The position numbers were made by a program, and so were the translations under genes. The notes beneath the pieces were generated by a model. It ran no database searches, was not told where the DNA came from, and saw nothing but the letters and a program-made list of their open reading frames with translations. Shown piece by piece: positions 17 through 59,197 of a stretch of 59,197 bases of DNA. The DNA comes from a virus (lineage: Duplodnaviria > Caudoviricetes): IMG/VR virus record IMGVR_UViG_3300027985_000657, positions 1 to 59,197 of that record. One strand, given 5' to 3'. Each line of letters opens with the position of its first letter. Position 1 is the first letter of the stretch.

Positions 17-287
17 AAAAGTGACACAATTGACATATTTTTAACATGGCCCGTGAAGATTGCGCAAACAACACCTTTTTTTACCCAAAAACTACCCAAA
101 TATCAATAAATTGTATGTCAAATCTTTCCTGAAAAGTGACACAAAAGTGACACAAAAGTGACACAAATTGACATTTTCAATGTTTTTTATGGTATTCGTT
201 AATTATTAATCCAAAAATTAATGGTATATGTATATTTTTGACATACTTTTTGACATAAAATATTAGGCAAACTTTACGGGCAACGTT
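17..287. repeat. Putative replication origin: 11-bp iteron-like repeats in an AT-rich non-coding region
   Basis: AAAAGTGACAC at 17-27 and as three perfect tandem copies at 132-164, plus extra TGACA half-sites. An imperfect inverted pair (17/21 identity) lies at 43-63 and 267-287. No ORFs. Confidence 0.55.
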
Positions 288-321
288 TTTATCATTTTTA
301 GTGTGTTTACCTAAAATTAAA

Positions 322-356
322 AAAAAGAGCCCATGCGTTTTCGACGAGCTCTTTTT
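322..356 (-). terminator. Intrinsic terminator (possibly bidirectional) ending the minus-strand transcription unit
   Basis: AAAAAGAGC...GCTCTTTTT stem flanked by A/T tracts, downstream of the last minus-strand ORF. Confidence 0.7.
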
Positions 357-417
357 ATAATTTAATTTTCATTTAGTTTTTTAAATGCCATATATTAGAA
401 TATAAAATGTATAATTT

Positions 418-597
418 TTAGCGGGCCTGAACCGCACGTCGCTCGTGTCTCGAATGGTTGACACTTGTAACTTTCATACATTTATTCTCTAATACAGGTC
501 TAGACGATCGTTGTGGATATGTGTCTTCGACATATGATCGAATACCATGACGGTTGCCGTAAGAATATCCACCATAGAACCCGTACATTAGATACAT
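418..597 (-). CDS. Small hypothetical protein, 59 aa (MYLMYGFYGGYSYGNRHGIRS...), below the ORF-track cutoff
   Basis: AAGGAG RBS in the end of the upstream ORF, ATG 2 nt after its stop, open to TAA at 418. Confidence 0.55.
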   Translation of the reverse strand: MYLMYGFYGGYSYGNRHGIRSYVEDTYPQRSSRPVLENKCMKVTSVNHSRHERRAVQAR

Positions 598-599
598 TG

Positions 600-815
600 T
601 TATCTCCTTTTTCGTCCGCTATCTTTTCCGCGTGACTTATAATTATTTTTAGAATGTTCTTCTCTCTTATCTTTAAGGTATTCAGAACGATTTCTTTTCA
701 GAGCTTTCATCATATTTTCATATTCTTCTTGACAGTCATCACATAATCTATGATTACCATAAACTTCCCGACCGCATCTTTCACAGTTATTCGTTCTGTT
801 CGTGTACGTTTTCAT
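600..815 (-). CDS. Small Zn-finger-like protein
   Basis: CERC...CDDC; overlaps the upstream ORF. Confidence 0.6.
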   Translation of the reverse strand: MKTYTNRTNNCERCGREVYGNHRLCDDCQEEYENMMKALKRNRSEYLKDKREEHSKNNYKSRGKDSGRKRR

Positions 816-1296
816 TCGGTTTCTCTAGTAATTTTTCGACCACGCGCATATTTTTGAAAGTTCTTGCTTCCTTATTTAACCGCTCGCGTACGATATCTTT
901 TGCATCACGGAAACGGTGTGCTTCAACAATCTCTGTGACATGCTTCCATGAAACTCTTTTGGATGCACCTTTGAATAAAGGTTCTATTCGTAATTCGTAA
1001 GAAACCTCATAAAGTTTTAACGGATGTTCTTCCACTTCTTTTGAAATGTCTGGAATATAAGTAAAGAATTTCTTATTACCCAAACATAGTAGTTCTTCTG
1101 AGTTACAGTCACTCAAGACACAGTCAATAGTTTTTCTAAAGTCATCAATTTTGCTATCATTATAGAGAGCATATGATAATTCCTTAATAAAAATTTCCCT
1201 AGTAACCTTTCTGTCATTTATGATGTAAATCATTAAATCTCTGAAATCTTCTTCAGGTATGCCTAAATCAATAGACATCTGCTTGAAATGACCCAT
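787..1296 (-). CDS. Hypothetical protein
   Basis: 169-aa ORF with AAGGAGAA RBS. Confidence 0.7.
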   Translation of the reverse strand: MGHFKQMSIDLGIPEEDFRDLMIYIINDRKVTREIFIKELSYALYNDSKIDDFRKTIDCVLSDCNSEELLCLGNKKFFTYIPDISKEVEEHPLKLYEVSYELRIEPLFKGASKRVSWKHVTEIVEAHRFRDAKDIVRERLNKEARTFKNMRVVEKLLEKPNENVHEQNE

Positions 1297-3896: not shown

Positions 3897-3944
3897 TTGG
3901 ATTCTCCTTGTATAAATATCAAAAGAGAAAGATCATTGCTGATC

Positions 3945-4283: not shown

Positions 4284-4311
4284 CTATAAAGAGGTATGTA
4301 AAATTTGCGCA
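4284..4311 (-). promoter_or_regulatory. Phage promoter-like motif copy
   Basis: TGCGCAAATTTTACATACCTCTTTATAG. Confidence 0.7.
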
Positions 4312-14426: not shown

Positions 14427-15065
14427 TTAGTCTTCTTCGACTACTCCTATTATACCATTTATTTGATCATATGTTCTTTCTTCTAGAAGAACTTCATATA
14501 CAATGCCCTTTTTCTCATCACAAATGAACAAACAATCAGCATCATAAATTCCCATTTTATCCAGATTAGGATAACCGCCAACGATTCCAATATTATTCAA
14601 TTGATTATAATCGTCATCGGTAAGAACTTTATCAGCAGTGTAATAAAGGGTAACAGTCTCATATTCACTATCCTGAAATTCTTCAGGTGTCATAATATAT
14701 GGTTTAGTCGTGTCTACTTCCTCCTCTTTAATATGTACAAGTTTTTCTTCTCCAGGATCACCAGGAATTCTTTGATCTGATCCTGTTCTGTATTGTTCAC
14801 TGTAGTCAATCTTGCCATTGACTTTTTTAACTACAGGTTTCTTTGGTTCTTCTTTCTTTGGTTCATCAATTGGTTTATTGTCACCTTCTGGTACAACAGC
14901 CTCTTCTTTGACGCCAGAATAACGAGCAAGTAATACTTTTCGAACAGCAGCTACTTCTTCGTCCGCTAAATGCTCATAATATTTTTTGCTACGCATGTAG
15001 CCGATTTTATAACCGGCTACCGCTGCAAGAGATGCTCCAACTAAAAATATCAATACTTTTTTCAT
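14427..15065 (-). CDS. Membrane-anchored conserved phage protein
   Basis: N-terminal TM helix, PYIMTPEEF motif, acidic C-terminal domain. Confidence 0.75.
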   Translation of the reverse strand: MKKVLIFLVGASLAAVAGYKIGYMRSKKYYEHLADEEVAAVRKVLLARYSGVKEEAVVPEGDNKPIDEPKKEEPKKPVVKKVNGKIDYSEQYRTGSDQRIPGDPGEEKLVHIKEEEVDTTKPYIMTPEEFQDSEYETVTLYYTADKVLTDDDYNQLNNIGIVGGYPNLDKMGIYDADCLFICDEKKGIVYEVLLEERTYDQINGIIGVVEED

Positions 15066-17018: not shown

Positions 17019-17046
17019 TCATTATACCAGATGTATTTTATGCGAA
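17019..17046 (-). promoter_or_regulatory. Phage promoter-like motif copy
   Basis: TTCGCATAAAATACATCTGGTATAATGA. Confidence 0.75.
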
Positions 17047-17172: not shown

Positions 17173-17946
17173 CTAGTAGCTGTATACTTGTTTTGGTCTT
17201 GTGTTATATCTAATTGCACCACATGGTTCATTATCCGGTGTTAAAACAGTATCAATACTAATATCAATGATGCCTTGTTTACCGTCTTGTATTGACCAAC
17301 CCATGGTTTCACCAAGAACAGTTTCTTCTAACCCCAGAATATCAAACCAATCATTCAAAGTAGTTACACCAGACAAATCACCCATTGCTTGAGCATTCAA
17401 TTCGTTCGCTGCCTTTGATATGCGATTCCAATTAGTTTTGAAATATCTTCCAGACAATTCTTCATAAAATAAACTATCGCCGTCTCCAATAAGGGTAACA
17501 TTATTTATTCCATCTTTATATGTCTTTCTGACTTTTTCTTCTGAAATACTTTCCTCAATCTTCTCAAATTTCTTATCGCCGATTAAGGTTTTTGTTGTTT
17601 CTTTATACTCTTGAAGAGCAGTTTCTGACAATGTATATGCAGCTGCCAACATAATATTCCTTTTATTTGCTATGCGATTTCCAGCAATTATACAAGGGAT
17701 TGACATGCCGGTACTTACAACAACAGGTAAATAATCTTTCCAGGATAACTTAAATATTTCTTCAATAGTAAGTTTATCCTTTTTTAATTGTTGTTTTCTT
17801 TGTTCAACCTTCTTTGTTACTTTTGCAGTTGCTTTTATTCCCCATACAACTGAAAATAACATACCAGAGATACCCATTGTCATAAGTATCTCGGGTTCAT
17901 GTTGCGCTAAAAATGGTTTTATTGTTTTTAATATGTTACTCTTCAT
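17173..17946 (-). CDS. Membrane-associated paralog 2 (DUF6353-like)
   Basis: HEPEIL...KATAK...YLPV...LAAAYTLSE..L.EY...FYEELSGRYF...LN.W...LGL...MGW. Confidence 0.75.
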   Translation of the reverse strand: MKSNILKTIKPFLAQHEPEILMTMGISGMLFSVVWGIKATAKVTKKVEQRKQQLKKDKLTIEEIFKLSWKDYLPVVVSTGMSIPCIIAGNRIANKRNIMLAAAYTLSETALQEYKETTKTLIGDKKFEKIEESISEEKVRKTYKDGINNVTLIGDGDSLFYEELSGRYFKTNWNRISKAANELNAQAMGDLSGVTTLNDWFDILGLEETVLGETMGWSIQDGKQGIIDISIDTVLTPDNEPCGAIRYNTRPKQVYSY

Positions 17947-18889
17947 CCTCGTTGACCTCTCCATCATTGTCATTTTTGATTTTTATTAGTTTACCATCAG
18001 GACCTTTAGTATATCCGAACATTTCAAATGTGGCATACTCATGATTTGGATTATCCAGGAATGGGTCAAAATCTAAATCAAGACGTTCTTCATAGTCTTC
18101 GACACCAAGCATAATTGGATCTTCCAACCAAGAAATGACTTTATATGGTATTTGAGGTTCGACATCATCAATTGTAATCTCATCTACTAATTGCATGTGA
18201 ATCCAGATTATATCTTTTGTTTCAGATAAATAATCCATTGTCCATCCCCATGAAGAAAGGTATTCTTTCGTAATTGAAGTATCAATAATATTAGCTTTTG
18301 CTAATTCTACAAATTGTAGCAACGTTACTCCTTCAAAAACTTCATCTGTTGGATATCCATTCAAAGTTCCATTCATCATTTCATTGATTGTAGCATATGC
18401 ATACATAACATCTTCGGGTAGGGCTTGAAAATATCCAATTAGTTCATCATAGTAAAGTTCTCTACGATCCCCTTCATCTCTAGTTATGTGCTGTTTTACT
18501 GCTTTTTGTTCCTTTTGTGATAAACTTTTCAGAATATCATTGTGTGCATCAACACCAAGTACAGATTTTACTTGATGTTTGTATTTTTTCCACCCTTGGT
18601 CGGCAATTACAGCCATTGACATAATAGAAGCCTGCGCTTTATTACTCATAATTGTTGAGCCAACTATTGATGAAATTGTTGCTATTCCAGCTATTCCAGT
18701 TGGAATATAAATCTTGTACAAAGCCATTATCTTTTCTTTTAAAGGTAGTGATTCAAAATTATGAATTTTCTTTCGTACAATTGATTCTTTCATTGCTGCT
18801 TTTCTTGCTAATATTGCCGTCCCTACAGTTCCTATTGCTCCAACCACGGAAAAGCCAACTGCAAGTACTTGTTTTGTTTTTAGATTCAC
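17936..18889 (-). CDS. Membrane-associated paralog 3 (DUF6353-like)
   Basis: GTG start with AAGGAGAACTTAG RBS; two hydrophobic segments, YIPT, YYDELIGYF, WGW. Confidence 0.7.
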   Translation of the reverse strand: MNLKTKQVLAVGFSVVGAIGTVGTAILARKAAMKESIVRKKIHNFESLPLKEKIMALYKIYIPTGIAGIATISSIVGSTIMSNKAQASIMSMAVIADQGWKKYKHQVKSVLGVDAHNDILKSLSQKEQKAVKQHITRDEGDRRELYYDELIGYFQALPEDVMYAYATINEMMNGTLNGYPTDEVFEGVTLLQFVELAKANIIDTSITKEYLSSWGWTMDYLSETKDIIWIHMQLVDEITIDDVEPQIPYKVISWLEDPIMLGVEDYEERLDLDFDPFLDNPNHEYATFEMFGYTKGPDGKLIKIKNDNDGEVNEDEE

Positions 18890-19194: not shown

Positions 19195-19222
19195 TCATTA
19201 TAGTGAATGTTAATTTTGCGAA
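19195..19222 (-). promoter_or_regulatory. Phage promoter-like motif copy
   Basis: TTCGCAAAATTAACATTCACTATAATGA. Confidence 0.75.
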
Positions 19223-25322: not shown

Positions 25323-25350
25323 CTATAAAGTGATATGTAAATTATGCGAA
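25323..25350 (-). promoter_or_regulatory. Phage promoter-like motif copy
   Basis: TTCGCATAATTTACATATCACTTTATAG (identical to 27308-27335). Confidence 0.8.
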
Positions 25351-27205: not shown

Positions 27206-27233
27206 CTATAAAGTGATATGTATTTTTTGCGTA
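27206..27233 (-). promoter_or_regulatory. Phage promoter-like motif copy
   Basis: TACGCAAAAAATACATATCACTTTATAG. Confidence 0.75.
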
Positions 27234-27307: not shown

Positions 27308-27335
27308 CTATAAAGTGATATGTAAATTATGCGAA
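27308..27335 (-). promoter_or_regulatory. Phage promoter-like motif copy
   Basis: TTCGCATAATTTACATATCACTTTATAG. Confidence 0.8.
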
Positions 27336-48240: not shown

Positions 48241-48726
48241 CTAGTTACCTCCCTTTCCAGAATCTTGCATGTCAACCTTGTTAGTTTTATATGCTACTCT
48301 ACCATTTTCCCATACACCATTTTTAAGCTGATTAATGTCATATCCTTGATCAGCTAATGCCATATGGACACCGATTTGGCCCCTCTTTGCAACCCATTCT
48401 ACTATTTTACCTGACGGTGACCTAATATCCTTGGTTTTTGTTCGAAGTACTTCAGCCAAATGTTTATTGTACGTATTAATAAGAGTTCGTTTACCCATTT
48501 GTTGACCTGATTTTTGTAATTCTTTAATGTATTCCTTCATTTCAGGCTTGGATTCTTTTAGTGCTTTTTCATACACCTTATCGGATTTTCGTTTAACCCA
48601 TTTTTCATCCAATTTTTGATATCGTCTAACTCCAGCAGGCGTTAGAGATCCATCATCATTCTGGTAACGTCTTATTCCCCATCGTTGACCTTTAATACCA
48701 TGATGGACTAGATATGTTTTTATCAT
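48241..48726 (-). CDS. HHGIKGQRWG-motif small basic head-region protein 3
   Basis: YLVHHGIKGQRWGIRRYQNDDGSLTPAG.RRY. Confidence 0.8.
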   Translation of the reverse strand: MIKTYLVHHGIKGQRWGIRRYQNDDGSLTPAGVRRYQKLDEKWVKRKSDKVYEKALKESKPEMKEYIKELQKSGQQMGKRTLINTYNKHLAEVLRTKTKDIRSPSGKIVEWVAKRGQIGVHMALADQGYDINQLKNGVWENGRVAYKTNKVDMQDSGKGGN

Positions 48727-48727
48727 T

Positions 48728-50473
48728 TCATTCGAACGCCTCCTTATTTTGTTTAAAGGCAATAAAAGCATCCATTAAGGCTGCTACATTGTCAATTTTT
48801 GCTTCATGACGTTTCTTGTAAAGTTTTCTATTACCATTTGTATCTTCAAGAGTAATAGAATTACCCATTGCGAATGTCATTAATTCTTCATCATGCAAAA
48901 GTTTTCTTTCTTCTGCAAGTTTTTTCAATTCCCCTAGAGGAACTGATTCTGTTTTAGAACCTTGAATAACTTTTACTATTCCGAATGGACCATTTTCAGT
49001 TTGCCATCTTTCAACAAACTCTTTTGCATTATAAGGGTCAAATCCAAGGGCTCTCACATCATAATTTGCTTCGGCGATGTGATTGTCAATGTCCTCATAT
49101 ACTAACATCATGTCTAGAATAGTTCCATCCATGACCATTAATGATCCTTCTTTCATAAACTCCTCATACTTAAACCTCATTGCTGTAGGCAATCGTTGAA
49201 GAGTAAATTCACTAATATAACTTCGTGTTTTAACCCCAAATTCACCATTAGATAATGGGAAAAGGAATGTAAATGCACAAAAGTCATCTCCTTGAGACAA
49301 GTCAACACCAAGTGCACATGGTAATCCCCAAAAAGTTTTCTTTGAATGAGGTAATGTTTCTTCATACGTAAAATAGTATGTAAACCCCTCCATTGGTATA
49401 CCAAATCTCTTTGCAAGTATGTCATTTCGGACTGCTGGGGCTTTTTCAGCTCTTTCCACATCTAGTAAATATGTTTCATATGAAACTGTTTTACCTAAAT
49501 TAGGATTTGCTTTGATCCACATATCTGGATCGGCAACCTCATCAATATTATCTAAACGATAGTACCAGATTGATACATGCGGATTCACATATTCACCTTT
49601 TAAGATGTCTAATAATTCCATTTTGATTGTATCACCTGATCCATTACGAACAGTACCTTCTGAAGAGACTGCAACAATTAAATAATCATCGACTTTCGAA
49701 GCTCCTTGTTCAATTGCACCAACTACATCTTCTCTAACATCCCCGGACAACCACTCATCAATAGTTGCTATCTTACATCTTAAACCTTGAAGTTTATCGA
49801 TTCTCATCGGTCTGATTTCAAGTAAAGATCCAGTTAAGAAATTCTCAATTCCCTTTTTTGTAGATGCTAATTTTACTCTATTTGCTTTTGAACCAGTTGT
49901 GTTTTGTAAAGATCCTTCTGTTAAGAACTTAAACAACGGCCCTTTTGAACGAATAATTGAAGTTTTTATTGGTGACATTACTTCATCTGCTTGTTTCATG
50001 GTTGGGGCAGTAGTAATCTGATAAGTTGTTGTAGGATCAATATTAAGAAAATAGCTTTGTATTTCAGATGCATACATTGATTTTGCAGCACCACGAGAAA
50101 CTATTAAATATTGTTTATTTACGAGTCTTTTTTTAATCATTTTCTTTTCATAATGACCATGTTTATCGTTTATACCTTTAACATAGATACTTCGTTCTAC
50201 GAAATAGTACCAACCAAATATTTGTTCTGCCCATAGTTTAAATGAATCCAACATTTTTAAATCAGATCCATCTGTTAGTGTTGTTTCTTTTTCACAATAC
50301 TCAATAAACCCGTTTATTGCCAGGTCATCATAGTAAATCCCCGGATTTGCAATAAGCTCGTCAATCCGATTCATTTCTAGAGAGATCTCCCTACATACAG
50401 GCATATCGCCTCTAAGCACGGCATCTCTGAATTCACCATAATACTTAGGCGTTGCTGTATTAGATAGTCCCAT
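48728..50473 (-). CDS. terL: Terminase large subunit
   Basis: VSRGAAKS Walker A variant, IDEW Walker B, GVDLS..DD RNase H-like motif, FDPYN, KIDNVAA.MDA. Confidence 0.92.
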   Translation of the reverse strand: MGLSNTATPKYYGEFRDAVLRGDMPVCREISLEMNRIDELIANPGIYYDDLAINGFIEYCEKETTLTDGSDLKMLDSFKLWAEQIFGWYYFVERSIYVKGINDKHGHYEKKMIKKRLVNKQYLIVSRGAAKSMYASEIQSYFLNIDPTTTYQITTAPTMKQADEVMSPIKTSIIRSKGPLFKFLTEGSLQNTTGSKANRVKLASTKKGIENFLTGSLLEIRPMRIDKLQGLRCKIATIDEWLSGDVREDVVGAIEQGASKVDDYLIVAVSSEGTVRNGSGDTIKMELLDILKGEYVNPHVSIWYYRLDNIDEVADPDMWIKANPNLGKTVSYETYLLDVERAEKAPAVRNDILAKRFGIPMEGFTYYFTYEETLPHSKKTFWGLPCALGVDLSQGDDFCAFTFLFPLSNGEFGVKTRSYISEFTLQRLPTAMRFKYEEFMKEGSLMVMDGTILDMMLVYEDIDNHIAEANYDVRALGFDPYNAKEFVERWQTENGPFGIVKVIQGSKTESVPLGELKKLAEERKLLHDEELMTFAMGNSITLEDTNGNRKLYKKRHEAKIDNVAALMDAFIAFKQNKEAFE

Positions 50474-50484
50474 ATTATTTCACA

Positions 50485-50955
50485 CTACTTACCGGATCTA
50501 TTTTGTTTTGCGATTACTTGTTTTCTTGTTTGTGGCTTACCAGTAAATGTTTCTGGAGTAGGTCCCATACCAGTTGAATTAAATGTTCTATTACTATTTG
50601 CTATAACGAAACTTTTTGCTCCTGAAGCAACTATAACAGAGCCAATAAGTGTTGATAAAATTGCATCATTTAACAATTTTTTACCACTTTTTGTTGATAG
50701 ATTTGTTTTATTAATTTTGGCTTTTACAATAGCAGTAACACCTTTTGCCACAACGGCTGTTCCGGCAATAGTTTTTAATGTACCTCTATTAATTCTACTT
50801 CTTCTATAACTTTCTTTCATATTTACAGTTCCGTCTTCATTTACGTCATAGCGTTTTTTACCAAGAGGAGTAAGACTTCCATCTTCGTTTTGGAAACGTC
50901 TAATTCCCCAACGTTGGCCTTTAATACCATGATGGACCAAATATGTTTTATGCAT
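50485..50955 (-). CDS. HHGIKGQRWG-motif small basic head-region protein 2
   Basis: YLVHHGIKGQRWGIRRFQNEDGSLTPLGKKRY; two hydrophobic segments. Confidence 0.8.
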   Translation of the reverse strand: MHKTYLVHHGIKGQRWGIRRFQNEDGSLTPLGKKRYDVNEDGTVNMKESYRRSRINRGTLKTIAGTAVVAKGVTAIVKAKINKTNLSTKSGKKLLNDAILSTLIGSVIVASGAKSFVIANSNRTFNSTGMGPTPETFTGKPQTRKQVIAKQNRSGK

Positions 50956-50956
50956 A

Positions 50957-51481
50957 TTATTTCCCTCCTTTATTGCCAAGTTTTATTTTGTTAATTTCAC
51001 CTACGGTGATAGCAATACTTGCACCAATTGCAACAGCGGCGCCAACTGTTTGTAAAATTTCACGGGTCCAATCAGCTCCGGATCGAATTCTTTTTGTATC
51101 ACCAGTTAATTCGCCGTAACTACGTTCCATGCTTAAGCGGTTGATTCTTTGTCTAATTTCAGCATCAGATAATTTGCTATAATCGGCGTTGTTAACAATT
51201 TTTGATTTGTTTTTTCCGACATTACCAATCGCAGTATCTAATGTATTTATAGATTTTGATGTTCCTTCAAGAATAGCTTTTGCAGCATCCGCATCTGCTT
51301 TACGATAATCGGCTTCAAGTTGTTTTTTACCTGTCTGATTGACTATTGAATTCCCATGTTCATTTGAATTCCCATAGCGTTTTTTTCCAAGATCTGTTAG
51401 TGTGCCATCAGGGTTTTGGTAACGTCTGACACCCCATCGTTGACCTTTAATCCCGCTATGAAATAAGTATAATTTAATCAT
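50957..51481 (-). CDS. HSGIKGQRWG-motif small head-region protein 1
   Basis: YLFHSGIKGQRWGVRRYQNPDGTLT..GKKRY; LSD.E....I.RL..E..Y repeat unit; C-terminal hydrophobic helix. Confidence 0.8.
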   Translation of the reverse strand: MIKLYLFHSGIKGQRWGVRRYQNPDGTLTDLGKKRYGNSNEHGNSIVNQTGKKQLEADYRKADADAAKAILEGTSKSINTLDTAIGNVGKNKSKIVNNADYSKLSDAEIRQRINRLSMERSYGELTGDTKRIRSGADWTREILQTVGAAVAIGASIAITVGEINKIKLGNKGGK

Positions 51482-51485
51482 TGCA

Positions 51486-51884
51486 TTATTCCTCCTCATC
51501 CACAACGAGCGTTGCTAAATATGCTTGATATGCGGCAATGTCTTCTTCTGTAAATAATCTATATTCCATCTCTTCTATAGATCTCTTCATAGCATCTAAA
51601 ACATTACCATTGCTCGGCGGATCAAAAATCATTTTGACTTTAAGAGCAACATATGATTTAATTTGTTGAGATTTCATGGGATCAGTAAGTGTGTAACTAT
51701 CCCATGTTTCATCATAACCAGTTATTACAAATCCGGCAAGTGGACCTATGCCCATTTGCGTAAGATTGCTAAAAACAGTATTGATATGAATCAATATGTC
51801 TTGGTCAAATGAGTCATATTCTTTTGACAATCCTAATATTTTTTTCACACTTTCTAGGATTGATGCAATTACCAGATCAGCCAT
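51486..51884 (-). CDS. Putative head-tail connector (gp6/gp15-like)
   Basis: SIL.SVKK.LG....FD.DI..HIN...L.Q.G...FDPP...E.EYRL. Confidence 0.65.
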   Translation of the reverse strand: MADLVIASILESVKKILGLSKEYDSFDQDILIHINTVFSNLTQMGIGPLAGFVITGYDETWDSYTLTDPMKSQQIKSYVALKVKMIFDPPSNGNVLDAMKRSIEEMEYRLFTEEDIAAYQAYLATLVVDEEE

Positions 51885-51890
51885 GATCTA

Positions 51891-52316
51891 TTACCCGATT
51901 TTGATGTAGTCTTTTAAACAATAACCAACCAAATCATGAGATCCATTATTAAATGATACCTCATAAAATGACTCTGTTGAATTGTCTAGGTTAATTACAA
52001 CTTCTGTTCCGGCAGGAATTTGAGCAAGTTCTCTTGTTCTGATGTTTGCACCTTCACGAAGACGTAATGCATTGCAATTTGCAATTACACCTTTGGTTGT
52101 TCCGAGTTTTTTCTTTCGAGATGGTTTTTCTGGAGCAACAACATGCGGAGGTGTTTCTTCTACAGGAGTTTCCACTTCTGGAGTTTCTTCTACCGGAGTT
52201 TCAACTACTTCTGGAGTTTCTTCTACAGGAGTTTCAACAACTTCTGGAGTTTCTTCTACCGGAGTTTCAACTACTGGTGCATCTTCTTTAGAAGCACTTG
52301 TGTTTTGTTTAGCCAT
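51891..52316 (-). CDS. Acidic repeat protein with C-terminal SH3b-like domain
   Basis: PVEETPEVVET repeats, then LRLREGA...IPAGTEV...FYEV...GYC...YI. Confidence 0.75.
   Translation of the reverse strand: MAKQNTSASKEDAPVVETPVEETPEVVETPVEETPEVVETPVEETPEVETPVEETPPHVVAPEKPSRKKKLGTTKGVIANCNALRLREGANIRTRELAQIPAGTEVVINLDNSTESFYEVSFNNGSHDLVGYCLKDYIKIG
52150..52277 (-). repeat. Coding ~33-bp tandem repeats (VETPVEETPEV)
   Basis: About 4 copies of GAAACTCC(G/T)GTAGAAGAAAC-type units. Confidence 0.85.
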
Positions 52317-52337
52317 TTTAAATTCTCCTTCTTTAGT

Positions 52338-52760
52338 TTATTTTTTCCACGGACAATGATCATTATGTGTTCTTGTAACTATTCGTCTACTGTCAACATA
52401 ACTTTTAGATCCGTAATGGATAGCATTATGAGTATCTAATGAAACACATATAAGATACTCGGGATTTAATAAATCATTATCAGAATTTAATATGTCTTCT
52501 GGTGATATTGGATTCATATGATGCACATGAATTGTTCCAAAAATATCCTCACCATCTAAACCCATGTCACACCCATTATCTCTGAGTATAACTAAGTCTC
52601 TGACACGTTTCCATTCTTGTGATTTGTATAGTTGTTGATTTAAATATCTGTCAAAACCAAATGTGTCGGCTCCAACTTTTCCAGATAAGGATAAATAATC
52701 AAATCGTTCTTCATACGTTTCTAACTGACACAGTTCGGTATATGATCTAATATTCTTCAT
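52338..52760 (-). CDS. HNH endonuclease (packaging-associated)
   Basis: W..VRD.V..RD..C...HVHHMNP....L.....H..IH; next to the TerS-like gene. Confidence 0.85.
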   Translation of the reverse strand: MKNIRSYTELCQLETYEERFDYLSLSGKVGADTFGFDRYLNQQLYKSQEWKRVRDLVILRDNGCDMGLDGEDIFGTIHVHHMNPISPEDILNSDNDLLNPEYLICVSLDTHNAIHYGSKSYVDSRRIVTRTHNDHCPWKK

Positions 52761-53106
52761 TGTCATCATTCCCCTCACTACCAGCATATATACGCATTGC
52801 TTTAATTGCCTCTCCATAAAGTTCTTCAATTCTCTTAGTAGAACGAATTGACTCTGTCTTGGCAATTAATAATTCTTTTTCTAGCTCCTTAATCTCACTA
52901 TCTTGTTTCTTTTTACTAGAACCGAGCATTAAATAGTGAGTGATTACTTGAGAAGAGGCGGTACCGTCCAACAATTGCTTTCTAGCTAAATCAACTGCTA
53001 GAGAAATCATCTGTTGCTCGTCAGCCTCTGGTGTTAACGCTGGTCGGATTGTCTTAACAGGCTTACTATTAGCAGACGTCCGAGCTTGTCCAGTACTTCG
53101 AGGCAT
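52747..53106 (-). CDS. Putative terminase small subunit-like protein
   Basis: First gene after the GC-rich cos-like site; PALTPE..E.Q.I.LA..LA..QL..GTASSQVI pattern; function inferred from position. Confidence 0.5.
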   Translation of the reverse strand: MPRSTGQARTSANSKPVKTIRPALTPEADEQQMISLAVDLARKQLLDGTASSQVITHYLMLGSSKKKQDSEIKELEKELLIAKTESIRSTKRIEELYGEAIKAMRIYAGSEGNDDNEEY

Positions 53107-53133
53107 GATACCCCTCCTTTCGGTGTAGTTTGT

Positions 53134-53260
53134 TTAAGTATCTAAGCAGATATATAGTATATCCGAACACTTGTATTGTGGTTTTTAGAAGGAAAGGAGA
53201 ACTTAGAAAGAAGAATATCCCTTGAATGTCAGATTCCTATATACCTGACTAGATACTTAA
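53134..53260 (-). ncRNA. Long hairpin whose loop is antisense to the phage's extended RBS
   Basis: Perfect 11-bp TTAAGTATCTA/TAGATACTTAA stem plus further helices; minus-strand loop reads CTTTCTAAGTTCTCCTTTCCTTCTAAAA. Confidence 0.55.
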
Positions 53261-53283
53261 GGTTAAAAACATGTCTCCAAAAA

Positions 53284-53360
53284 CCCCCCCCGGGGAAATT
53301 TTGAAGGGCGGGGCGATGCCGGAGGGGGGTGTAATTTCCGAAGACCCCCCGTCGGTGCCC
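53284..53360. other. GC-rich island, probable cos/packaging site
   Basis: Extreme GC island with C/G runs in an AT-rich genome, upstream of the TerS-like and HNH genes; minus strand reads CGCCCCGCCCT at 53315-53305. Confidence 0.6.
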
Positions 53361-53477
53361 ACAAAGTGGTGAAAGTACTTGAATAATTGTTATTAATGGC
53401 AATTTTTAAGTTCAGTCAAGAACACCTAACATTATTCTATTCAATTTTGATGTAAAAACATACACCTTATTTTACAA

Positions 53478-53762
53478 TTAATTTTTATTTTTAGTTTCTT
53501 TAATAACTTTTTTAAATTCTATGATTTCACCTTGTTTATTTATGGCGCCCGTCTTAATTAGTTGGTCTATGCCATGGTTAACAGACTCATAGATTTCTTC
53601 ATCAGTCATTGAATCACTAAGAAATGTTATACTTGCTAATCTACCACATGTATTATAGCCAGCATTGGTATCAAATAATAGCCATTGTTCCCAGTGTGTG
53701 AAAGGATTATATGGATTGTCTGCTGTTGTTACACGTAGTTCTTTATTGTTATATGCGGACAT
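53478..53762 (-). CDS. Small conserved protein following the RNA polymerase-like gene
   Basis: TT.DNPYNPF...W..FD...GY.T...LA; strong RBS, starts 2 nt after the upstream stop. Confidence 0.75.
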   Translation of the reverse strand: MSAYNNKELRVTTADNPYNPFTHWEQWLLFDTNAGYNTCGRLASITFLSDSMTDEEIYESVNHGIDQLIKTGAINKQGEIIEFKKVIKETKNKN

Positions 53763-53764
53763 AA

Positions 53765-56740
53765 TTACTCTCCTTTCAATGTGTTAGTAACTGTTGTTAC
53801 AGACACACCAATAGCTCTAGCTATCTCTGATGTAGTATAGCCGGATCTAGCCATGTTTTCTATTCTTCTTATTTTGGCAGGACTTAAAACAACACTAGTT
53901 CTAGGCATAGCAAACTTTCTTAGAATCTCTATGTTAGCATTAGCCATTATTTGTTCTAACTTATGGGTACTTATAGCACCAGCTTGTATTGCATCCCATT
54001 CTCTTTGTGTTATTTCTATTTCATGTCTAGCGGCACCTACCTTAGCCCTAGCCTTACTTAATTCTTGTTGTCTAAGCTTTCTTTCCTCTTCTGCAGTCAT
54101 TCTAGGATTGTCTTGTTTTTTAATTCTTATGTTAGATGCAGCAATTGTTTGGGCCTGTCTTTCTCTAGGAGCATTGAGTAGAGCTTGATTAATTTTGTAA
54201 TCTAAAGAAATGACCTCCTCATTGTATGCATTTCTAGCCGATGCAGAATAAGGGGTATTAATAATTGTAAGCGTTTCTTTTCTTGCTTCGTTGGCTAATG
54301 TTTTTAACGCATTAGCATATGTGGCATAGGCTTCCTCCTGTGGTGTACCAGATGATAGTGTTCTAGCATCATTTGTTTCAGCCATTTTAGTGGAGTATGT
54401 TGTTGCTTTAGTTGTTTTAATATTTTCATTAGTTACTTTTACATAATCACCGGTCTCATCTTTATAGTATAGATTACCATCTTTTACAATAACAGAAACT
54501 TTTTTATTGTCACCAGAAGATGTCTTATATGTAGTGGTCATGTATTCTCTGTTTGTATACGTATACAGTTTTTCACCAGTTTCTGGATCAAAGTATCTAG
54601 TTTTCTTATCTTTTTCACCATAATATTTACCAGTTTGTTCATCATAGTAAATCTTATTTTCTGGATCAATCAATGTAATTTGATTTCCTGTATCTTTTGC
54701 AAAGTAAGCTCCAAGTTTTCGCTCACCAACAACTTGTGTAGATTTTGATTTTGAAATTAATGTAGCTGCACCCATGTGCGATCTTCCAGTTTCTGGATCA
54801 ATCTGTGTTTGGTACTTTTTATGAAGTGCTTTTACACCATTGTCAACTTCAGACTGTTTATAATCCAATTTATGTTTGTTTGCATCGATGATAACCATTG
54901 AATGTTTAACAGCTCTTGCTAATTCTTCATTTGTTGCACCTTTCAATGTCATGTCTGTAATAAGGTTAGAAATAGTACCCATTTCATTTTGGGTTCTTGT
55001 TTCTGGGAGAATTGTAAATTCTTTTCCTCCTCTATAATACCTTTCTTCGCCATTAATAGTTTTTATTTCGTCTGGACCATACGAAAACTTTGTATCAAAG
55101 CCTTCCAAAGCCTTTAAAGGTGGTGATGAAGAAATCTTAATCTTGTCGGTAATAGGTATAACCATTACTGTGTCACCATCAAAATCTGCACCGGATAGTC
55201 TTGCTGCAACTTTTGCATTTATTCCTATTGCATCTGTTGGATTTTTTGTCATGATAGAAATCGCTTCTTTATTCCTATTATTTACATTTAAAACTGGAAT
55301 TTCAAAAGTTCCACCATGTGGATATCTAACCAATGCTATTTGAGATCCATCATCCATATGTGGTGCAAATGCTTCATTATCTTTTAATGATGGAACAGCT
55401 AAAATTACTTTGTATTTTGCTCCCGGTAATCCTGCAGCTTTTAAATTTACAGCTGAAGCATCACAATCATCAGCAAATGACAATAATAATGATTTTTTAA
55501 CTGTTGGATTAGTTAGAGAATTTATTTCGTCAAATTCATCAACTTTTTCTTGCATAGAAATTTCCAATTGTTTATTAATTAATTTCTGAGGCTGTTTAGA
55601 TAAAAATTGTGCGGATATTTCTTTAGACCAATCTCCCCAATCACCTTCATCTGAACGTTTATTTATTACAGATAGATGCTCATTTCCATCAGAATCATAC
55701 CAAACTGATTGTCCGCCTGTTTCTTTTATTGTTGAACCAAATGGATTATCTGGATCGTTTTTGATTGGTTTCATAGCATCTAATTTTGATTCGGTTTTGT
55801 TTTTATTTGTATTGAAAACAACATCTATTCCATCTGGCATATTATCAGAATATACTGCCATTCCTTTTAAATAGTGTGTTCCATCAACTAGAATACGAAC
55901 TTGAGAATAATTAGATGTTCCTAGTGAAATATCATCAACACCTCTTCTAAGTTCAATAATTCCATCTTTTTCACCGCCACCTTCATTGCCATATCTAACT
56001 TCAATTCTATCAGAACTCAAACTTTCTGGATATTGAAATGACGGTTTAAATGTTTTTCCATCATCATAAGATGTTAAGTCTTCTACAGAATGAATTTGAT
56101 CATAATTATAAATTGCTTTATGTGGTGTTCCAGGCGAACAAAGAACTTTTAATGTAGTTAACATTCCTTTATTAGTGGCTTGAGGAACTCTGTTACCATG
56201 AACAACATAACCTTCCATTTTTAAGATTTCAATTGCTTGATCCATCTTTTCTTTGGAAACTTTTAATTGTCTAGGTACGCCAGCACCAATATCAATCATA
56301 CCTTTTTCATCAACTAATTGTCTAAGATTGTCTGCCAAATCAGTTGCTAGATTCATTCTTGCTTTTGCATCTTTATTTAATAATGATCTTACACTTGATT
56401 CACCTTTCAAACCAAGCATTTCTGCAATTTTTACTCTACTGTATCCTTCTTCACTTAACGTGTTAGCTTTAGAATATAAGTCGTTTTTTCTTTCTCTTTT
56501 TGCTAGTGATACTAATGCTCTTAAACGAGTACTTGAAATATCACCCATGGCTTTTGCTATTTCTGCTTCTGTTAGACCTTGCTTTTTTAGTTCGTCAACT
56601 CTACTTAAAAAGTCTCCACTATGCTGATATGGTGATTCGCCACTTCCCCATGGATATCTACCAGAATGTCTAGGAGTACCATAGTGAAGTAGATATTCAT
56701 CATCAGTCATTGAATTGTCTAGTAATTCTTTATCACTCAT
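53765..56740 (-). CDS. Putative single-chain two-barrel (DFDGD) RNA polymerase with fused HTH domains
   Basis: LSGADFDGD (55172-55192 for GADFDGD), LVRYPH, SQVR...YLKGM, GTISN, HSMVIIDANK; HTH-like segments at both termini. Confidence 0.8.
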   Translation of the reverse strand: MSDKELLDNSMTDDEYLLHYGTPRHSGRYPWGSGESPYQHSGDFLSRVDELKKQGLTEAEIAKAMGDISSTRLRALVSLAKRERKNDLYSKANTLSEEGYSRVKIAEMLGLKGESSVRSLLNKDAKARMNLATDLADNLRQLVDEKGMIDIGAGVPRQLKVSKEKMDQAIEILKMEGYVVHGNRVPQATNKGMLTTLKVLCSPGTPHKAIYNYDQIHSVEDLTSYDDGKTFKPSFQYPESLSSDRIEVRYGNEGGGEKDGIIELRRGVDDISLGTSNYSQVRILVDGTHYLKGMAVYSDNMPDGIDVVFNTNKNKTESKLDAMKPIKNDPDNPFGSTIKETGGQSVWYDSDGNEHLSVINKRSDEGDWGDWSKEISAQFLSKQPQKLINKQLEISMQEKVDEFDEINSLTNPTVKKSLLLSFADDCDASAVNLKAAGLPGAKYKVILAVPSLKDNEAFAPHMDDGSQIALVRYPHGGTFEIPVLNVNNRNKEAISIMTKNPTDAIGINAKVAARLSGADFDGDTVMVIPITDKIKISSSPPLKALEGFDTKFSYGPDEIKTINGEERYYRGGKEFTILPETRTQNEMGTISNLITDMTLKGATNEELARAVKHSMVIIDANKHKLDYKQSEVDNGVKALHKKYQTQIDPETGRSHMGAATLISKSKSTQVVGERKLGAYFAKDTGNQITLIDPENKIYYDEQTGKYYGEKDKKTRYFDPETGEKLYTYTNREYMTTTYKTSSGDNKKVSVIVKDGNLYYKDETGDYVKVTNENIKTTKATTYSTKMAETNDARTLSSGTPQEEAYATYANALKTLANEARKETLTIINTPYSASARNAYNEEVISLDYKINQALLNAPRERQAQTIAASNIRIKKQDNPRMTAEEERKLRQQELSKARAKVGAARHEIEITQREWDAIQAGAISTHKLEQIMANANIEILRKFAMPRTSVVLSPAKIRRIENMARSGYTTSEIARAIGVSVTTVTNTLKGE

Positions 56741-57378
56741 CTCTTATACTCCCTTTCAAAATATTTTTTAATAGTTTTATCTTTTGATGTAATCAAATGC
56801 ATTATTCCTTGAATTTCTGTAGGTTCTGCAACAAGAGTTTGAATTTCTCCTTCTTGATAAATACGTAATTCCGTTGTAAAATCAAACGGGTCTTTTTTAT
56901 ACTCTAAACAAAATAACGCAGCATATATCAATAGTTGTTCCATTTTTGTTGGTGTTATACCACTTTTTAAATCATGAATTCTTAATATTTTATTAAATTC
57001 ATCAAAAACTATTGTGTCTGCCGTTCCGAAAGCATTCATTGAATAATATAAAATTACTTCTGGATACATTCTAAAACCAATAGCATCATTTACAAAAGGT
57101 AAAAGATTCAATAAAATTTGCTCAGAATCATATGCACCTTTTGGAATACCTAGTTTGGCTAAGAAAATATCAATTACTTTTTTGTCTGATCTAGCTAATT
57201 TAATTCTATGTGAAATTAAATCTCTAGCTAATTCATGTAATGCTGTTCCTATGGTTTGGGCGAATTGACCATAATATCTTTTTTCAAGTGTCTCATCATC
57301 CCAATTTAACCAGTGATACTTACTTGCTCCTAAAAAGGCATGTAGCCCTTCAAGTTTTGAGTGATCATTAAATATCAT
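56737..57378 (-). CDS. PD-(D/E)XK Cas4/RecB-like exonuclease (DUF2800-like)
   Basis: HAFL.AS...W, GTALH, PE..L, FGTAD, IHDLKSG, QLLIYA. Confidence 0.8.
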   Translation of the reverse strand: MIFNDHSKLEGLHAFLGASKYHWLNWDDETLEKRYYGQFAQTIGTALHELARDLISHRIKLARSDKKVIDIFLAKLGIPKGAYDSEQILLNLLPFVNDAIGFRMYPEVILYYSMNAFGTADTIVFDEFNKILRIHDLKSGITPTKMEQLLIYAALFCLEYKKDPFDFTTELRIYQEGEIQTLVAEPTEIQGIMHLITSKDKTIKKYFEREYKR

Positions 57379-57701
57379 TTTCCTAAGTTCTCCTTTTTCT
57401 TGAAATTATTAACATGATTATGCAATCTGTCAAAAACCTCATTTTCATTTTCAGGATTTATAAAACTTGAGAAACTCATATCATTATGCTTATTTACATA
57501 ATATTCTTGATTGGGTTGTTTGTTAGCTTTTTTATTTTTTTTAACTTCAAGTGTTCCCCATGTTAATGGACATAATACAACTAAATCTGGACTACCTTGA
57601 ATTTCAGTAGGATCTAGTTTATGAACTTCACATTGAGGAAACTCTTTTTTCAATCGATCTTTTACAATTGATTGAAACCCATTTTTACCAGTCTCTCTCA
57701 T
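57375..57701 (-). CDS. VRR-NUC family nuclease / resolvase
   Basis: E..FQ...QGSPDL...LEVK...QPNQ; start reassigned to MRETGK. Confidence 0.8.
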   Translation of the reverse strand: MRETGKNGFQSIVKDRLKKEFPQCEVHKLDPTEIQGSPDLVVLCPLTWGTLEVKKNKKANKQPNQEYYVNKHNDMSFSSFINPENENEVFDRLHNHVNNFKKKENLGK

Positions 57702-57782
57702 AAATATAAGTCCTTCCTTCTTTATTAGGTAAAATGCAAAACAGAATGTAATATGCTTTTTTCGCAATTTACCCTCTTCTCT

Positions 57783-57810
57783 CCATAAAAGTCTATGTAT
57801 TATCTGCGAA
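57783..57810 (-). promoter_or_regulatory. Phage promoter-like motif copy heading the nuclease-RNAP operon
   Basis: TTCGCAGATAATACATAGACTTTTATGG. Confidence 0.75.
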
Positions 57811-57812
57811 TA

Positions 57813-59024
57813 TTAATAATCATTTTCTAAGAACTTATATTGTTTAATATATTCTGGAATTAAACTAACGATTGTTCCTTCTTCATCAACCTTAAGTTTA
57901 ATAAACCATGCTCCAGATTCATTTGCAATTCTCTTTCTCTTCATCCAAGAAGATTGTTGTGTCATAGATGGCGCTTCAAAATAATGAATATTTCTATAAA
58001 GAAAATACATTGCTTTGTGATGATGTCCTACAAATAAAATGTTAGGCTTATCACCACCAGAAATAGAGTCCATATATTTTTGACCAGAATATGATACGGC
58101 ATATGCAGAACCATCAAGAGGATGGAATAAATCCATTCTACAATTTGGAGTTAACATAATTTTTGCATGGCCAATTCCTAAATAATTTATGTCTTTTCTT
58201 TCTTTTGCAATTGCAGCTCCAATATTAAAGCCACCATTCTTAATATGTGTTTCATCATGATTGCCAATAATTAGATGTGTAGTAATTCCAGGATAACGTG
58301 GCCAATTCGCAACTACATAATCTTTTTGTTCGTCTGCACCAATTGCAATTAGCTCATAAATTTGTTCTGGTCTTGATTTATAATACCCATCAACTATATC
58401 ACCAACATGATAAACATTTGTGATTCCTCTTCTGTTTGCTTCTGCATAAATAAAATCTACAAAAGATTTTTGTTGAATCTTTGTACACCAATGTGAATCA
58501 CTTATTACTAAAAATTCAATTTCTGTTACTTTACCGATAGAATGAACATATGTTTGTGGAACTACAGCTAGTGTTTTTTCCAAACTATATTGTTCTGTGC
58601 TCTTATTGTAAGATATGATATAGTTGTCTACTTTCAATGCATGAATTAATCCCATTGCAGTTATTTCATCAACTTTCAAATATTTTACAATTTCATCTAA
58701 CGTCTTTGGTTTAGCTAAATATTTCCTTAACTTAATTTTTTGATCAGATAATGTGATCTGTACTTCTTCTTGAACCTTTTTATTATTAAGTACATCGTTA
58801 ACTCTACCAAGATTTGTAGTTTGTGCTGCTGAACCTGTTCTTAATAATCTTGCCTTACCTGTTTCATATTGATTTTTCCACTGACGCTTTGTTAATGTAA
58901 CACCAAAATGTTCATTTAGAGTTTTTGAGATTTCATCCCAGTTTCTAAACGGTTGACCATCTGGTAATGGTGCGTCAATAATATCAAATACTTTCTGTAA
59001 ATCATCAGCTGTTTTACTATACAT
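57813..59024 (-). CDS. HTH-fused calcineurin-like metallophosphoesterase
   Basis: ISDSH, HVGDIVDG, IGNHD, FHP, GHHH; N-terminal HTH-like segments; start MYSKTA (AGGAGG RBS). Confidence 0.85.
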   Translation of the reverse strand: MYSKTADDLQKVFDIIDAPLPDGQPFRNWDEISKTLNEHFGVTLTKRQWKNQYETGKARLLRTGSAAQTTNLGRVNDVLNNKKVQEEVQITLSDQKIKLRKYLAKPKTLDEIVKYLKVDEITAMGLIHALKVDNYIISYNKSTEQYSLEKTLAVVPQTYVHSIGKVTEIEFLVISDSHWCTKIQQKSFVDFIYAEANRRGITNVYHVGDIVDGYYKSRPEQIYELIAIGADEQKDYVVANWPRYPGITTHLIIGNHDETHIKNGGFNIGAAIAKERKDINYLGIGHAKIMLTPNCRMDLFHPLDGSAYAVSYSGQKYMDSISGGDKPNILFVGHHHKAMYFLYRNIHYFEAPSMTQQSSWMKRKRIANESGAWFIKLKVDEEGTIVSLIPEYIKQYKFLENDY

Positions 59025-59098
59025 GTAAACCCTCCTGTGCTCTTTGTTATTGACCTTAGTCAAAATCTAAAGTAGAATGTAAATACTATGCATTCTCT

Positions 59099-59126
59099 CC
59101 ATAAAAGTCAATGTTTAATCTGCGAA
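59099..59126 (-). promoter_or_regulatory. Phage promoter-like motif copy
   Basis: TTCGCAGATTAAACATTGACTTTTATGG. Confidence 0.75.
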
Positions 59127-59197
59127 TGGACTTATGTGTCAAATGTCAAAAAATTTTCTAATATTATTTTAAATTTTTATTTTATTTTAAAAAATAA

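Follow-up and report, generated by a model that had tools for sequence, protein, structure and literature searches.

A predicted single-chain two-barrel RNA polymerase of the phage 1706/actinophage family and a candidate promoter motif that travels with its gene

Introduction

How minimal two-barrel RNA polymerases (RNAPs) find their promoters is an unsolved question, which the YonO paper leaves open, and the same question is raised by one gene of a 59,197-bp virus record (IMG/VR IMGVR_UViG_3300027985_000657; Caudoviricetes). The record is rated 98% complete and was analysed as a whole (the window), and its long open reading frames (ORFs) all lie on the minus strand. The gene, at 53765..56740, encodes a 991-aa protein. 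We consider it probable that this is a phage single-chain two-barrel RNA polymerase of the Lactococcus phage 1706/actinophage family, with the role in phage transcription set out below.

Proteins of this family had been recognised before. Ruprich-Robert and Thuriaux (2010; PMC2919709) listed Lactococcus phage 1706 as one of five YonO-like families, with SPbeta in a different one. Koert et al. (2021) described this protein for FP_oengus and for both the actinophage supercluster and the 1706 group, with an HHpred match to RNA-dependent RNA polymerase (RdRP; 95.7% probability, from a family alignment), a DxDGD motif and helix-turn-helix (HTH) domains at both ends, and suggested polymerase activity. 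An earlier note on this DNA, made from the letters alone, had treated the find as new, but the same reading is already in print in these two papers. The family was predicted in print beforehand, without experimental characterisation that we could find, and the present protein is a new member of it. The candidate promoter, the fixed small partner gene and the position at the genome end are additions beyond the published accounts found.

Family membership and catalytic motifs

The protein matched phrog_4291 ('RNA-dependent RNA polymerase') over nearly its entire length (E = 0, 1174.5 bits; residues 11–990 on profile positions 6–907 of 909), and judged by sequence it belongs to the Lactococcus-phage-1706/actinophage family PHROG 4291. 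A tblastn search returned 250 phage records, 249 of them full length with full-length identities of 37–47%, from phages of Arthrobacter (95), Gordonia (55), Streptomyces (54), Lactococcus (13), Faecalibacterium (2) and others. The best phage record was 47% identical and the best viral contig 80%. Among 1.84 billion cluster representatives, searched exhaustively with HMMER, 2494 relatives passed E ≤ 1e-3, of which 901 also passed E ≤ 1e-30. The earlier note had expected such a protein to be annotated easily as an HTH protein, and the public records agree: of 60 records sampled across the 250, 10 were labelled RNA-dependent RNA polymerase and most others HTH DNA-binding or hypothetical protein. 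The FP_oengus member is labelled 'putative RNA polymerase'.

The polymerase family was also found in 311 stretches of species-representative bacterial genomes, mostly of Lachnospiraceae, Oscillospiraceae and Ruminococcus. Isolates carrying the gene included Ruminococcus torques ATCC 27756, Hungatella hathewayi WAL-18680 and Cuneatibacter caecimuris (two copies), and one copy lies in a 3.5-Mb Hungatella scaffold with an integrase ~27 kb away. Because copies are present in bacterial genomes, including those of isolates, some family members are probably temperate.

The gene and its catalytic features, all on the minus strand, are as follows.

53765..56740, minus: predicted single-chain two-barrel RNA polymerase gene (P0001), 991 aa, from the ORF call, phrog_4291 and the AlphaFold model
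54263..56035, minus: predicted catalytic core, residues ~236–826, two double-psi beta-barrels and connecting helices, from VIA-align on the model
55856..55906, minus: SQVR (279–282) to YLKGMA (290–295), first barrel; Q280, R282, K292 and G293 invariant in 150 sequences
55316..55333, minus: LVRYPH, residues 470–475 (R472-x-P474), second barrel; R472 and P474 invariant
55172..55186, minus: DFDGD metal-binding loop (D519, D521, D523), invariant in 150 sequences and inside the Rpb1-type barrel match
54875..54979, minus: GTISN (588–592) to AVKHSMVIIDANK(H) helices, residues 588–622; G588, N592, D619, K622 and H623 invariant

Every motif string quoted in the earlier note was located in the 991-aa translation, in the order it gave; AARLSGADFDGDTVMV occupies residues 512–527 and encloses DFDGD at 519–523, and AVKHSMVIIDANK occupies residues 610–622. 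Conservation was read from an alignment of the query and its 149 best relatives (150 sequences, 43–57% identity). Q280, R282, K292, G293, D306, R472, P474, D519, D521, G522, D523, G588, N592, D619, K622 and H623 were invariant, and the same residues were invariant again within a 67-row subset, which also served as input for the AlphaFold2 model and the family profile. Since these residues are invariant in both alignments, the catalytic motifs must be under strict selection. The conservation of DFDGD across homologs, on which the earlier note had made its interpretation depend, thus extends to all 150 sequences.

Eight residues are universal among two-barrel enzymes, namely R, P and three D in the beta'-like part and D, K and K in the beta-like part, the latter being D837, K979 and K987 in Rpb2 (PMC2919709). 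From this set the R/P pair (R472/P474) and the three Asp are present and invariant, and K292, R282 and D306 of the first barrel are invariant as well. By order and motif, R472 and P474 would correspond to the universal R/P pair.

Predicted fold of the core

The AlphaFold2 model had a mean predicted local distance difference test score (pLDDT) of 87.6 and a predicted template modelling score (pTM) of 0.80, with disorder confined to residues 1–41. A whole-protein sequence search of the PDB gave nothing relevant. Foldseek with the model against the PDB placed QDE-1 at the top (E 2.1e-8, probability 1.00, with a whole-chain TM of just 0.22–0.26), followed by plant RDR2, P74-26 gp62 and 8f72, P23-45 gp96, and beta'/Rpb1 chains; 8f72 is Thermus phage P23-45 gp64 (titled 'Phage P32 gp64' in the search table). 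The top matches in BFVD were phage proteins named RNA-dependent RNA polymerase. Alignments of the model with solved structures by VIA-align, with root-mean-square deviation (rmsd), were as follows.

QDE-1 (7y7t_B): Z 14.1, rmsd 4.8 Å, 379 residues aligned, model 236..824
Maize RDR2: Z 13.7, rmsd 4.2 Å, 361 residues aligned, model 238..814
Thermus phage polymerase 8f72: Z 12.5, rmsd 4.5 Å, 349 residues aligned, model 238..823
African swine fever virus (ASFV) RNAP large subunit: Z 11.8, rmsd 2.2 Å, 95 residues aligned, model 435..540, with DFDGD within

Core matches to QDE-1, RDR2 and the Thermus-phage two-barrel polymerases ranged from Z 12.4 to 14.1. The model is predicted to contain a beta'-type barrel with the D-x-D-G-D metal loop. 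It is also predicted to contain the second, beta-type barrel with the conserved basic residues Q280, R282 and K292, on the basis that the QDE-1, RDR2 and 8f72 alignments begin at model residues 236–240 and span both barrels; model strands at 246–364 make up the first barrel region. The two-barrel interpretation of the earlier note was therefore borne out by the predicted structure and the Foldseek search, the matches to QDE-1, RDR2 and the Thermus-phage polymerases running over both barrels.

QDE-1 of Neurospora and plant RDR2 gave the best core matches (~360–380 residues) and share the D-x-D-G-D loop, but they are eukaryotic silencing enzymes without HTH modules, and their sequence identity to the window protein is 12–16%. 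Structures of QDE-1 with DNA templates exist, according to PDB entry titles. The Thermus phage proteins P23-45 gp64/P74-26 gp62 (non-virion) and gp96 (virion) resemble the window protein as single-chain two-barrel phage RNAPs (Z 12.4–12.5), but have ~590 aa and no HTH extensions, and P23-45 gp96 is fused to a tape-measure protein. The crAss-like phi14:2 gp66, another two-barrel single chain, gave just a weak Foldseek match (phi14:2 'structural protein' in BFVD, E 0.12). It is much larger and is carried in the virion.

Helix-turn-helix modules and the N-terminal peptide

Outside the catalytic motifs, four further features of the protein were delineated.

56621..56686, minus: N-terminal peptide HYG..SGRYPWGSG..PYQH, residues 19–40, predicted disordered (conservation and pLDDT)
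56360..56611, minus: N-terminal helical region with two HTH-like units, residues 44–127 (Terminase_5 and model helices 44–129)
54389..54808, minus: beta-hairpin repeat insertion of variable length, residues 645–784 (all-beta in the model)
53774..53881, minus: C-terminal HTH, residues 954–989 (HTH_23)

Two HTH matches passed their Pfam cut-offs, Terminase_5 at residues 92–127 (26.1 against 20.3 bits) and HTH_23 at residues 964–989 (30.5 against 24.6 bits). The HTH-like strings are GLTEAEIAKAMG at residues 55–66, GYSRVKIAEMLG at 99–110 and GYTTSEIARAIGVSVTTV at 967–984. The claim of the earlier note that HTHs stand at both ends of the chain holds for the units at 92–127 and 964–989, while the unit at 55–66 matched below threshold (HTH_3, E 0.32). 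Taken with the Pfam, PHROG, model and VIA-align results, its description stands: a two-barrel enzyme in one chain, from the QDE-1/YonO-like branch, flanked by HTHs on either side.

Sigma70_r4_2 fell below its cut-off (21.5 against 25.7 bits; TIGR02937 E 0.086), an NCBIfam scan of the polymerase gave sub-threshold HTH matches alone, and a PDB search with a profile of the last 210 residues returned LuxR-, Cbp1- and XRE-type HTH proteins and no sigma factor. An interpretation of the C-terminal region as a built-in sigma was dropped because that profile retrieved only generic HTHs from the PDB.

In the N-terminal peptide, H19, G21, S26, G27, R28, Y29, G32, S33, G34, P37 and Q39 were invariant or at least 90% conserved, and pLDDT stayed below 50 across residues 1–41. 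The insertion at 645–784 gave a weak choline-binding-repeat-like match, and many homologs align as two stretches with a break near residue 700.

A loose N-terminal pattern, H-x-G...WG...YQ (our own regular expression), occurred in the window only in the polymerase and in three DUF7211-like ORFs among the head and packaging genes. No relation of the polymerase N-terminus to DUF7211 could be established: the 55-residue N-terminus had no Pfam match, and hhalign aligned 11 columns at a probability of 34%. The three ORFs (48241–48771, 50485–50979 and 50957–51505, minus strand) encode paralogous small proteins that flank the large terminase gene and share the N-terminal HxGxKGQRWGxRRYQNxDGSLT; they match phrog_32444, and DUF7211 below threshold (E 3e-4 to 1e-3). 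A 114-nt DNA repeat family spans the 5' ends of the three genes, and relatives hold one to three copies.

A promoter-like motif that accompanies the polymerase gene

By repeat finding and inspection of the window, a 26-nt motif, CGCR-N6-ACAW-N7-WATRR, was found. It has 8 matches in the window against 0.04 expected, all of them on the minus (coding) strand, all intergenic, and each followed after 15–40 nt by a ribosome-binding site and start codon.

57783..57808, minus: copy directly upstream of the operon of endonuclease, exonuclease, polymerase and 94-aa genes
59099..59124, minus: copy upstream of the gene for a 416-aa metallophosphoesterase
4284–4309, 17019–17044, 19195–19220, 25323–25348, 27206–27231 and 27308–27333, minus: six further copies

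The window scan found no copy between 27334 and 57782, a stretch that holds the terminase, portal and head protease genes and long ORFs of 1878 and 1137 aa (these two ORFs were left out of the family-library scans).

The motif was then counted in other genomes. The viral comparison set comprised 51 related viral loci, of which 39 hold DNA downstream of the polymerase gene and the other 12 stop inside or at the end of that gene. The bacterial comparison set comprised 80 loci from bacterial genomes. The control, run for five whole relatives and four named phages, was the motif pattern read backwards.

51 viral loci, exact: 76 coding-strand copies, all upstream of the polymerase gene (219 kb), and 0 on the opposite strand
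51 viral loci, exact: 0 copies inside the polymerase gene (133 kb) and 0 downstream of it (94 kb)
Five whole relatives, exact: 10, 10, 7, 7 and 5 coding-strand copies (39), 0 opposite in each, control 2 in total
Arthrobacter phage Mudcat, at most one mismatch: 6 coding, 0 opposite; control 1/0
Gordonia phage Tanis, at most one mismatch: 14 coding, 0 opposite; control 1/2
Streptomyces phage Psst4, at most one mismatch: 10 coding, 0 opposite; control 4/1
Lactococcus phage 1706, at most one mismatch: 2 coding, 0 opposite; control 0/1
80 bacterial-genome loci, exact: 81 coding, 1 opposite; at least one copy in 63 of 80 loci

In the five whole relatives every copy lay in the non-structural half of the genome. 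A copy was found within 400 nt upstream of the endonuclease gene in 42 of 46 loci with at most one mismatch (29 of 46 exact), and in the bacterial-genome loci the motif typically lay ~930 nt upstream of the polymerase gene. It recurs in phages of Bacillota and of Actinomycetota, and the actinophage consensus is CGCr-N3-AwTACAyG-N2-CCTATAATGA.

Other repeats were seen near motif copies. A duplicated TTGACATTTGACAC lies at 59125–59150 (minus), ~11 nt upstream of the copy at 59099–59124, in the window and its four closest relatives; the metallophosphoesterase gene follows the TTGACATTTGACAC-associated motif copy in the window and in two of these four. In the actinophages Tanis and Psst4, a conserved GAGACCCCTA follows the motif and TAGGGGTC precedes several copies; because TAGGGGTC is complementary to GAGACCCCTA, the motif at these copies sits between inverted repeats. 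In phage 1706 three TATCACGAAAAAAC copies lie in the 448-nt gap upstream of orf75 (3523–3970 of its locus), two of them followed by TTCGGGA repeats. As a genome-wide signal in that phage TATCACGAAAAAAC was rejected, with 3 copies only, all just upstream of orf75.

Operon, small neighbouring gene and genome end

The polymerase gene stands in an operon that ends at the packaging region.

56737..57767, minus: 130-aa endonuclease-like and 213-aa Cas4-like exonuclease genes, upstream in the operon (phrog_93, phrog_3953)
53478..53762, minus: 94-aa ORF (phrog_4303), starting 2 nt past the polymerase stop codon
53281..53350, minus: cos element with a G6/C6 hairpin, GCAT, CGCCCCGCCC, and a second hairpin with a T-run, conserved in 12 of 12 intergenic regions

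The order in related loci is endonuclease-like gene, Cas4-like exonuclease gene, polymerase gene, 94-aa gene, gap, packaging genes. The nuclease pair lay upstream in 47 of the 51 viral loci, the other 4 beginning inside the polymerase gene, and the order was the same in Mudcat, Tanis and Psst4. A homolog of the 94-aa protein was directly downstream in all 39 loci holding downstream DNA, and in 34 of these 39 its ORF started within ~11 nt of the end of the polymerase match. Among phage records, 249 encode the 94-aa protein and 250 the polymerase, with the same taxon counts. In phage 1706 the 94-aa gene is still beside the polymerase gene, and the nucleases have moved away.

The earlier note had proposed the 94-aa protein as an accessory subunit, and on this point co-inheritance and structure prediction differ in strength. 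Co-inheritance is very strong. The model of the 94-aa protein (pLDDT 89.9) matched no known fold (best Foldseek E 0.44, best VIA-align Z 3.9), and a complex prediction with polymerase residues 42–945 scored 0.34 against 0.00 for the best control, a weak pass. In the calibration of this score, 58 of 80 solved complexes and 2 of 110 mismatched pairs attained the mark; among those passing, no more than 7 of the 80 solved complexes, along with both mismatches, scored 0.60 or lower. The runs agreed in at least 70% of contacts with a partner pLDDT of at least 71; our own alignments were used, so the calibration counts are rough. Passes of this kind are wrong more often than not where the pairing was not already likely, and near-perfect co-inheritance gives the partnership a fair prior. 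We tentatively suggest that the 94-aa protein may be a bound partner of the polymerase, with the balance somewhat against it.

The cos element marks the physical right end, ~160 nt past the 94-aa ORF and near 53306–53320. The GC-rich element was taken as the cos site because deposited genome ends (Mudcat, 1706 and Tanis) and the ends of many metagenomic contigs fall inside it; several contigs stop right at GCAT, and three of these still carry letters of the sequencing adapter. Since the cos site follows the 94-aa ORF, the linear genome ends on its right side with the polymerase and 94-aa genes. Conservation of the cos region (hairpin, GCAT, a GC-rich stretch of 9–10 nt, and second hairpin/T-run) reaches from Lactococcus phage 1706 to phages infecting Arthrobacter and Gordonia.

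Phage 1706 orf75 and the actinophage proteins are the closest known counterparts of this arrangement, sharing the family, the penultimate gene position, the 94-aa neighbour and the cos element. Phage 1706 differs by its non-adjacent nucleases and by the near absence of the motif (2 matches with at most one mismatch). Beyond these points the 1706 and actinophage homologs differ from the window protein by sequence divergence only.

Which polymerase reads the motif

We think it likely that the protein is catalytically active as a DNA-dependent RNA polymerase and transcribes phage genes without relying on the host enzyme. Whether the CGCR-N6-ACAW-N7-WATRR elements are its promoters, with host polymerase priming, is a nearly balanced matter, leaning slightly to the negative. 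That the enzyme is a sigma-independent, promoter-specific machine whose own HTHs read a promoter of ~26–35 bp (the motif and a purine-rich start region) is a possibility that we hold with some doubt; promoter recognition by the HTHs is an inference. The motif precedes each non-structural gene cluster and the polymerase's own operon; if the polymerase does read it, the HTH modules would do so with no need for a sigma factor. Host RNA polymerase would supply the first polymerase molecules, a start suggested because integrated prophage copies exist, after which the phage polymerase would boost transcription of the replication genes and of its own operon. Read-through past the joined cos site, or a further promoter, might serve the structural operon of ~25 kb.

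Several features of the motif suit this interpretation. A conserved, strand-specific, non-sigma70 motif that travels with the polymerase gene across two phyla is consistent with a promoter read by HTHs. The CGCR and ACAW blocks are kept across hosts of very different GC content, unlike a -35 element. On our own reading of the sequences, 6 of the 8 window copies have T in place of the key A at position 2 of the -10 hexamer, and none of the 8 has a TTGACA-like hexamer 16–18 nt upstream. Sigma70-like sites were not enriched in 52000–59197 (40 against 33.5 ± 5.8 in shuffles). Scans of 30 other non-structural ORFs, all of ~100 aa or longer, turned up no sigma or regulator family. The Thermus phage enzymes P23-45 gp64 and gp96 initiate at conserved promoter motifs of their own, GC-rich or AT-rich and unlike the present one.

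A number of observations weigh against the reading. Concerning the enzyme, the Pfam RdRP profile (PF05183) stayed below its cut-off (14.9 against 23.8 bits, E 0.011) and covered residues 510–624 only. The closest folds, QDE-1 and RDR2, are RNA-dependent and lie ~1.6 Z above the phage DNA-dependent enzymes; because they lead by just this much, the fold leaves the template type unsettled. The family profile of 67 sequences had no hhalign match to the single YonO sequence (probability 0.2). Because this comparison detects nothing, we treat the family as separate from YonO within the YonO-like branch, a distant sister of YonO and QDE-1/RDR. We found no work on activity, template, promoter or transcriptome for any family member, supplements aside, and no public RNA runs containing this phage are listed. 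The complex prediction with the 94-aa protein is weak, as noted above.

Concerning the motif, the pattern was derived from the window's own copies, so that only the counts from other genomes are independent, and many of the loci counted are closely related, so that these counts overstate independence, which the two-phyla spread does not. Actinophage copies end in a perfect TATAAT, and because their downstream block has this sequence, host sigma-A could read them. The polymerase's own operon lies behind the same motif, so another polymerase is needed to start its expression; and because the family is found integrated in bacterial chromosomes, host polymerase must be capable of initiating its expression. 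The scan for sigma and regulator families covered ORFs of ~100 aa and longer only. Finally, no copy stands ahead of the structural genes, whereas YonO is a late-gene enzyme.

These last points bring in YonO most directly. According to the YonO paper, the late operon of SPbeta is transcribed by YonO, a processive DNA-dependent RNAP. YonO resembles the window protein as a single-chain two-barrel phage enzyme (839 against 991 aa) encoded just upstream of a structural and packaging operon; the term HTH does not occur in the YonO paper, which leaves promoter recognition by YonO open. By analogy, host RNAP, perhaps with a phage factor, could read the motif and transcribe the non-structural genes, and the phage polymerase could transcribe the structural operon alone, from a start different from the motif between cos and the first structural gene (53107–53280). 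The gene order speaks for such a division of labour, since YonO transcribes the late operon as a single unit from a gene just upstream of it, and the polymerase operon here lies just upstream of the structural genes; so do the lack of the motif in the structural module, its presence ahead of the polymerase's own operon, the perfect TATAAT of the actinophage copies, and the integrated copies in Clostridia genomes, where induction must begin with host polymerase. Set against it are the conservation of CGCR and ACAW across phages of Bacillota and Actinomycetota, which is unlike a -35 element, the poor -10 in 6 of the 8 window copies, and the failure to find, outside close relatives, any conserved late-promoter candidate downstream of cos: in the search between cos and the first structural gene, the only recurring stretch was pyrimidine-rich and TTCTCCTTTC-like. 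We consider such a division unlikely, though it deserves serious attention.

A polymerase that is not a transcriptase, making primers or R-loops or copying RNA for replication or recombination together with the endonuclease and Cas4-like exonuclease of its operon, would account for the conserved operon with two nucleases. It would agree with the nearest solved folds, which are RNA-dependent polymerases that also accept single-stranded DNA, and with the RNA-dependent RNA polymerase label in PHROGs and public records. The phage, however, already has a helicase and, in one 1307-aa chain, a fused primase and polymerase; in phage 1706 the nucleases stand apart from the polymerase gene and the 94-aa gene stays; and three HTH modules with a genome-wide oriented motif suit promoter use over a single origin. 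Such a role seems improbable to us.

Delivery of the polymerase in the virion, packaged by way of its disordered N-terminal peptide and injected to fire the motif promoters first, as in N4 and crAss-like phages, would explain why one promoter class covers all non-structural genes including the polymerase operon. It would also give a use to the nearly invariant, disordered peptide, whose loose pattern is shared in the window by just three other ORFs, all among the head and packaging genes. The N-terminal motif profiles nevertheless align over only 11 columns (probability 34%), Pfam has no match in the polymerase N-terminus alone, the phage 1706 record labels orf71 as structural and the polymerase, orf75, not, and a prophage such as the chromosomal copy in Hungatella (integrase ~27 kb away) cannot rely on an injected enzyme. 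A packaging signal in the peptide is possible but unsupported, and virion delivery as a whole is very improbable.

Loss of catalysis, with the polymerase fold now serving only as an HTH DNA-binding regulator or a packaging factor near cos, would fit the HTH label of most database records, the resemblance of the HTHs to small terminase subunits (phrog_7067, phrog_309, Terminase_5) and the adjoining cos, but is scarcely credible with metal- and nucleotide-binding residues all invariant in 150 sequences at 43–57% identity.

Other features of the genome

Further features of the window lie outside the polymerase operon.

5137–5536, minus: full-length transfer-messenger RNA (tmRNA) gene (Rfam RF00023, 114.2 bits against a cut-off of 47), with an unusual tag peptide, AGFKSRTVFSY, per ARAGORN
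9694–13617, minus: 1307-aa protein joining a primase-like N-terminal part to a DNA polymerase (phrog_4210, E = 0; primase PHROGs at residues 78–441)
15065–16039, 17173–17973 and 17936–18889, minus: three phrog_2152 paralogs in the replication region
51891–52316, minus: 141-aa protein with tandem ETPVEETPEVV repeats followed by a sub-threshold SH3_3-like domain, among the packaging genes

Implications

For annotation, ~250 deposited phage genomes and several hundred bacterial loci hold this gene, mostly labelled 'HTH DNA-binding protein'. The family offers test pieces for the promoter question, namely an enzyme of ~110 kDa with DNA-binding modules, a sharp candidate promoter and a candidate small partner, and cultivable members exist among the phages of Arthrobacter, Gordonia, Streptomyces and Lactococcus. 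The conserved promoter-like motif gives a direct bench route to the question of promoter recognition. If the link between motif and enzyme is true, the family would represent a second way in which the lineage of cellular RNAPs achieves promoter specificity, one without sigma, and the first two-barrel polymerase with promoter recognition inside the catalytic chain, and it could provide a compact, portable, orthogonal expression tool for Gram-positive hosts, analogous in use to T7 polymerase.

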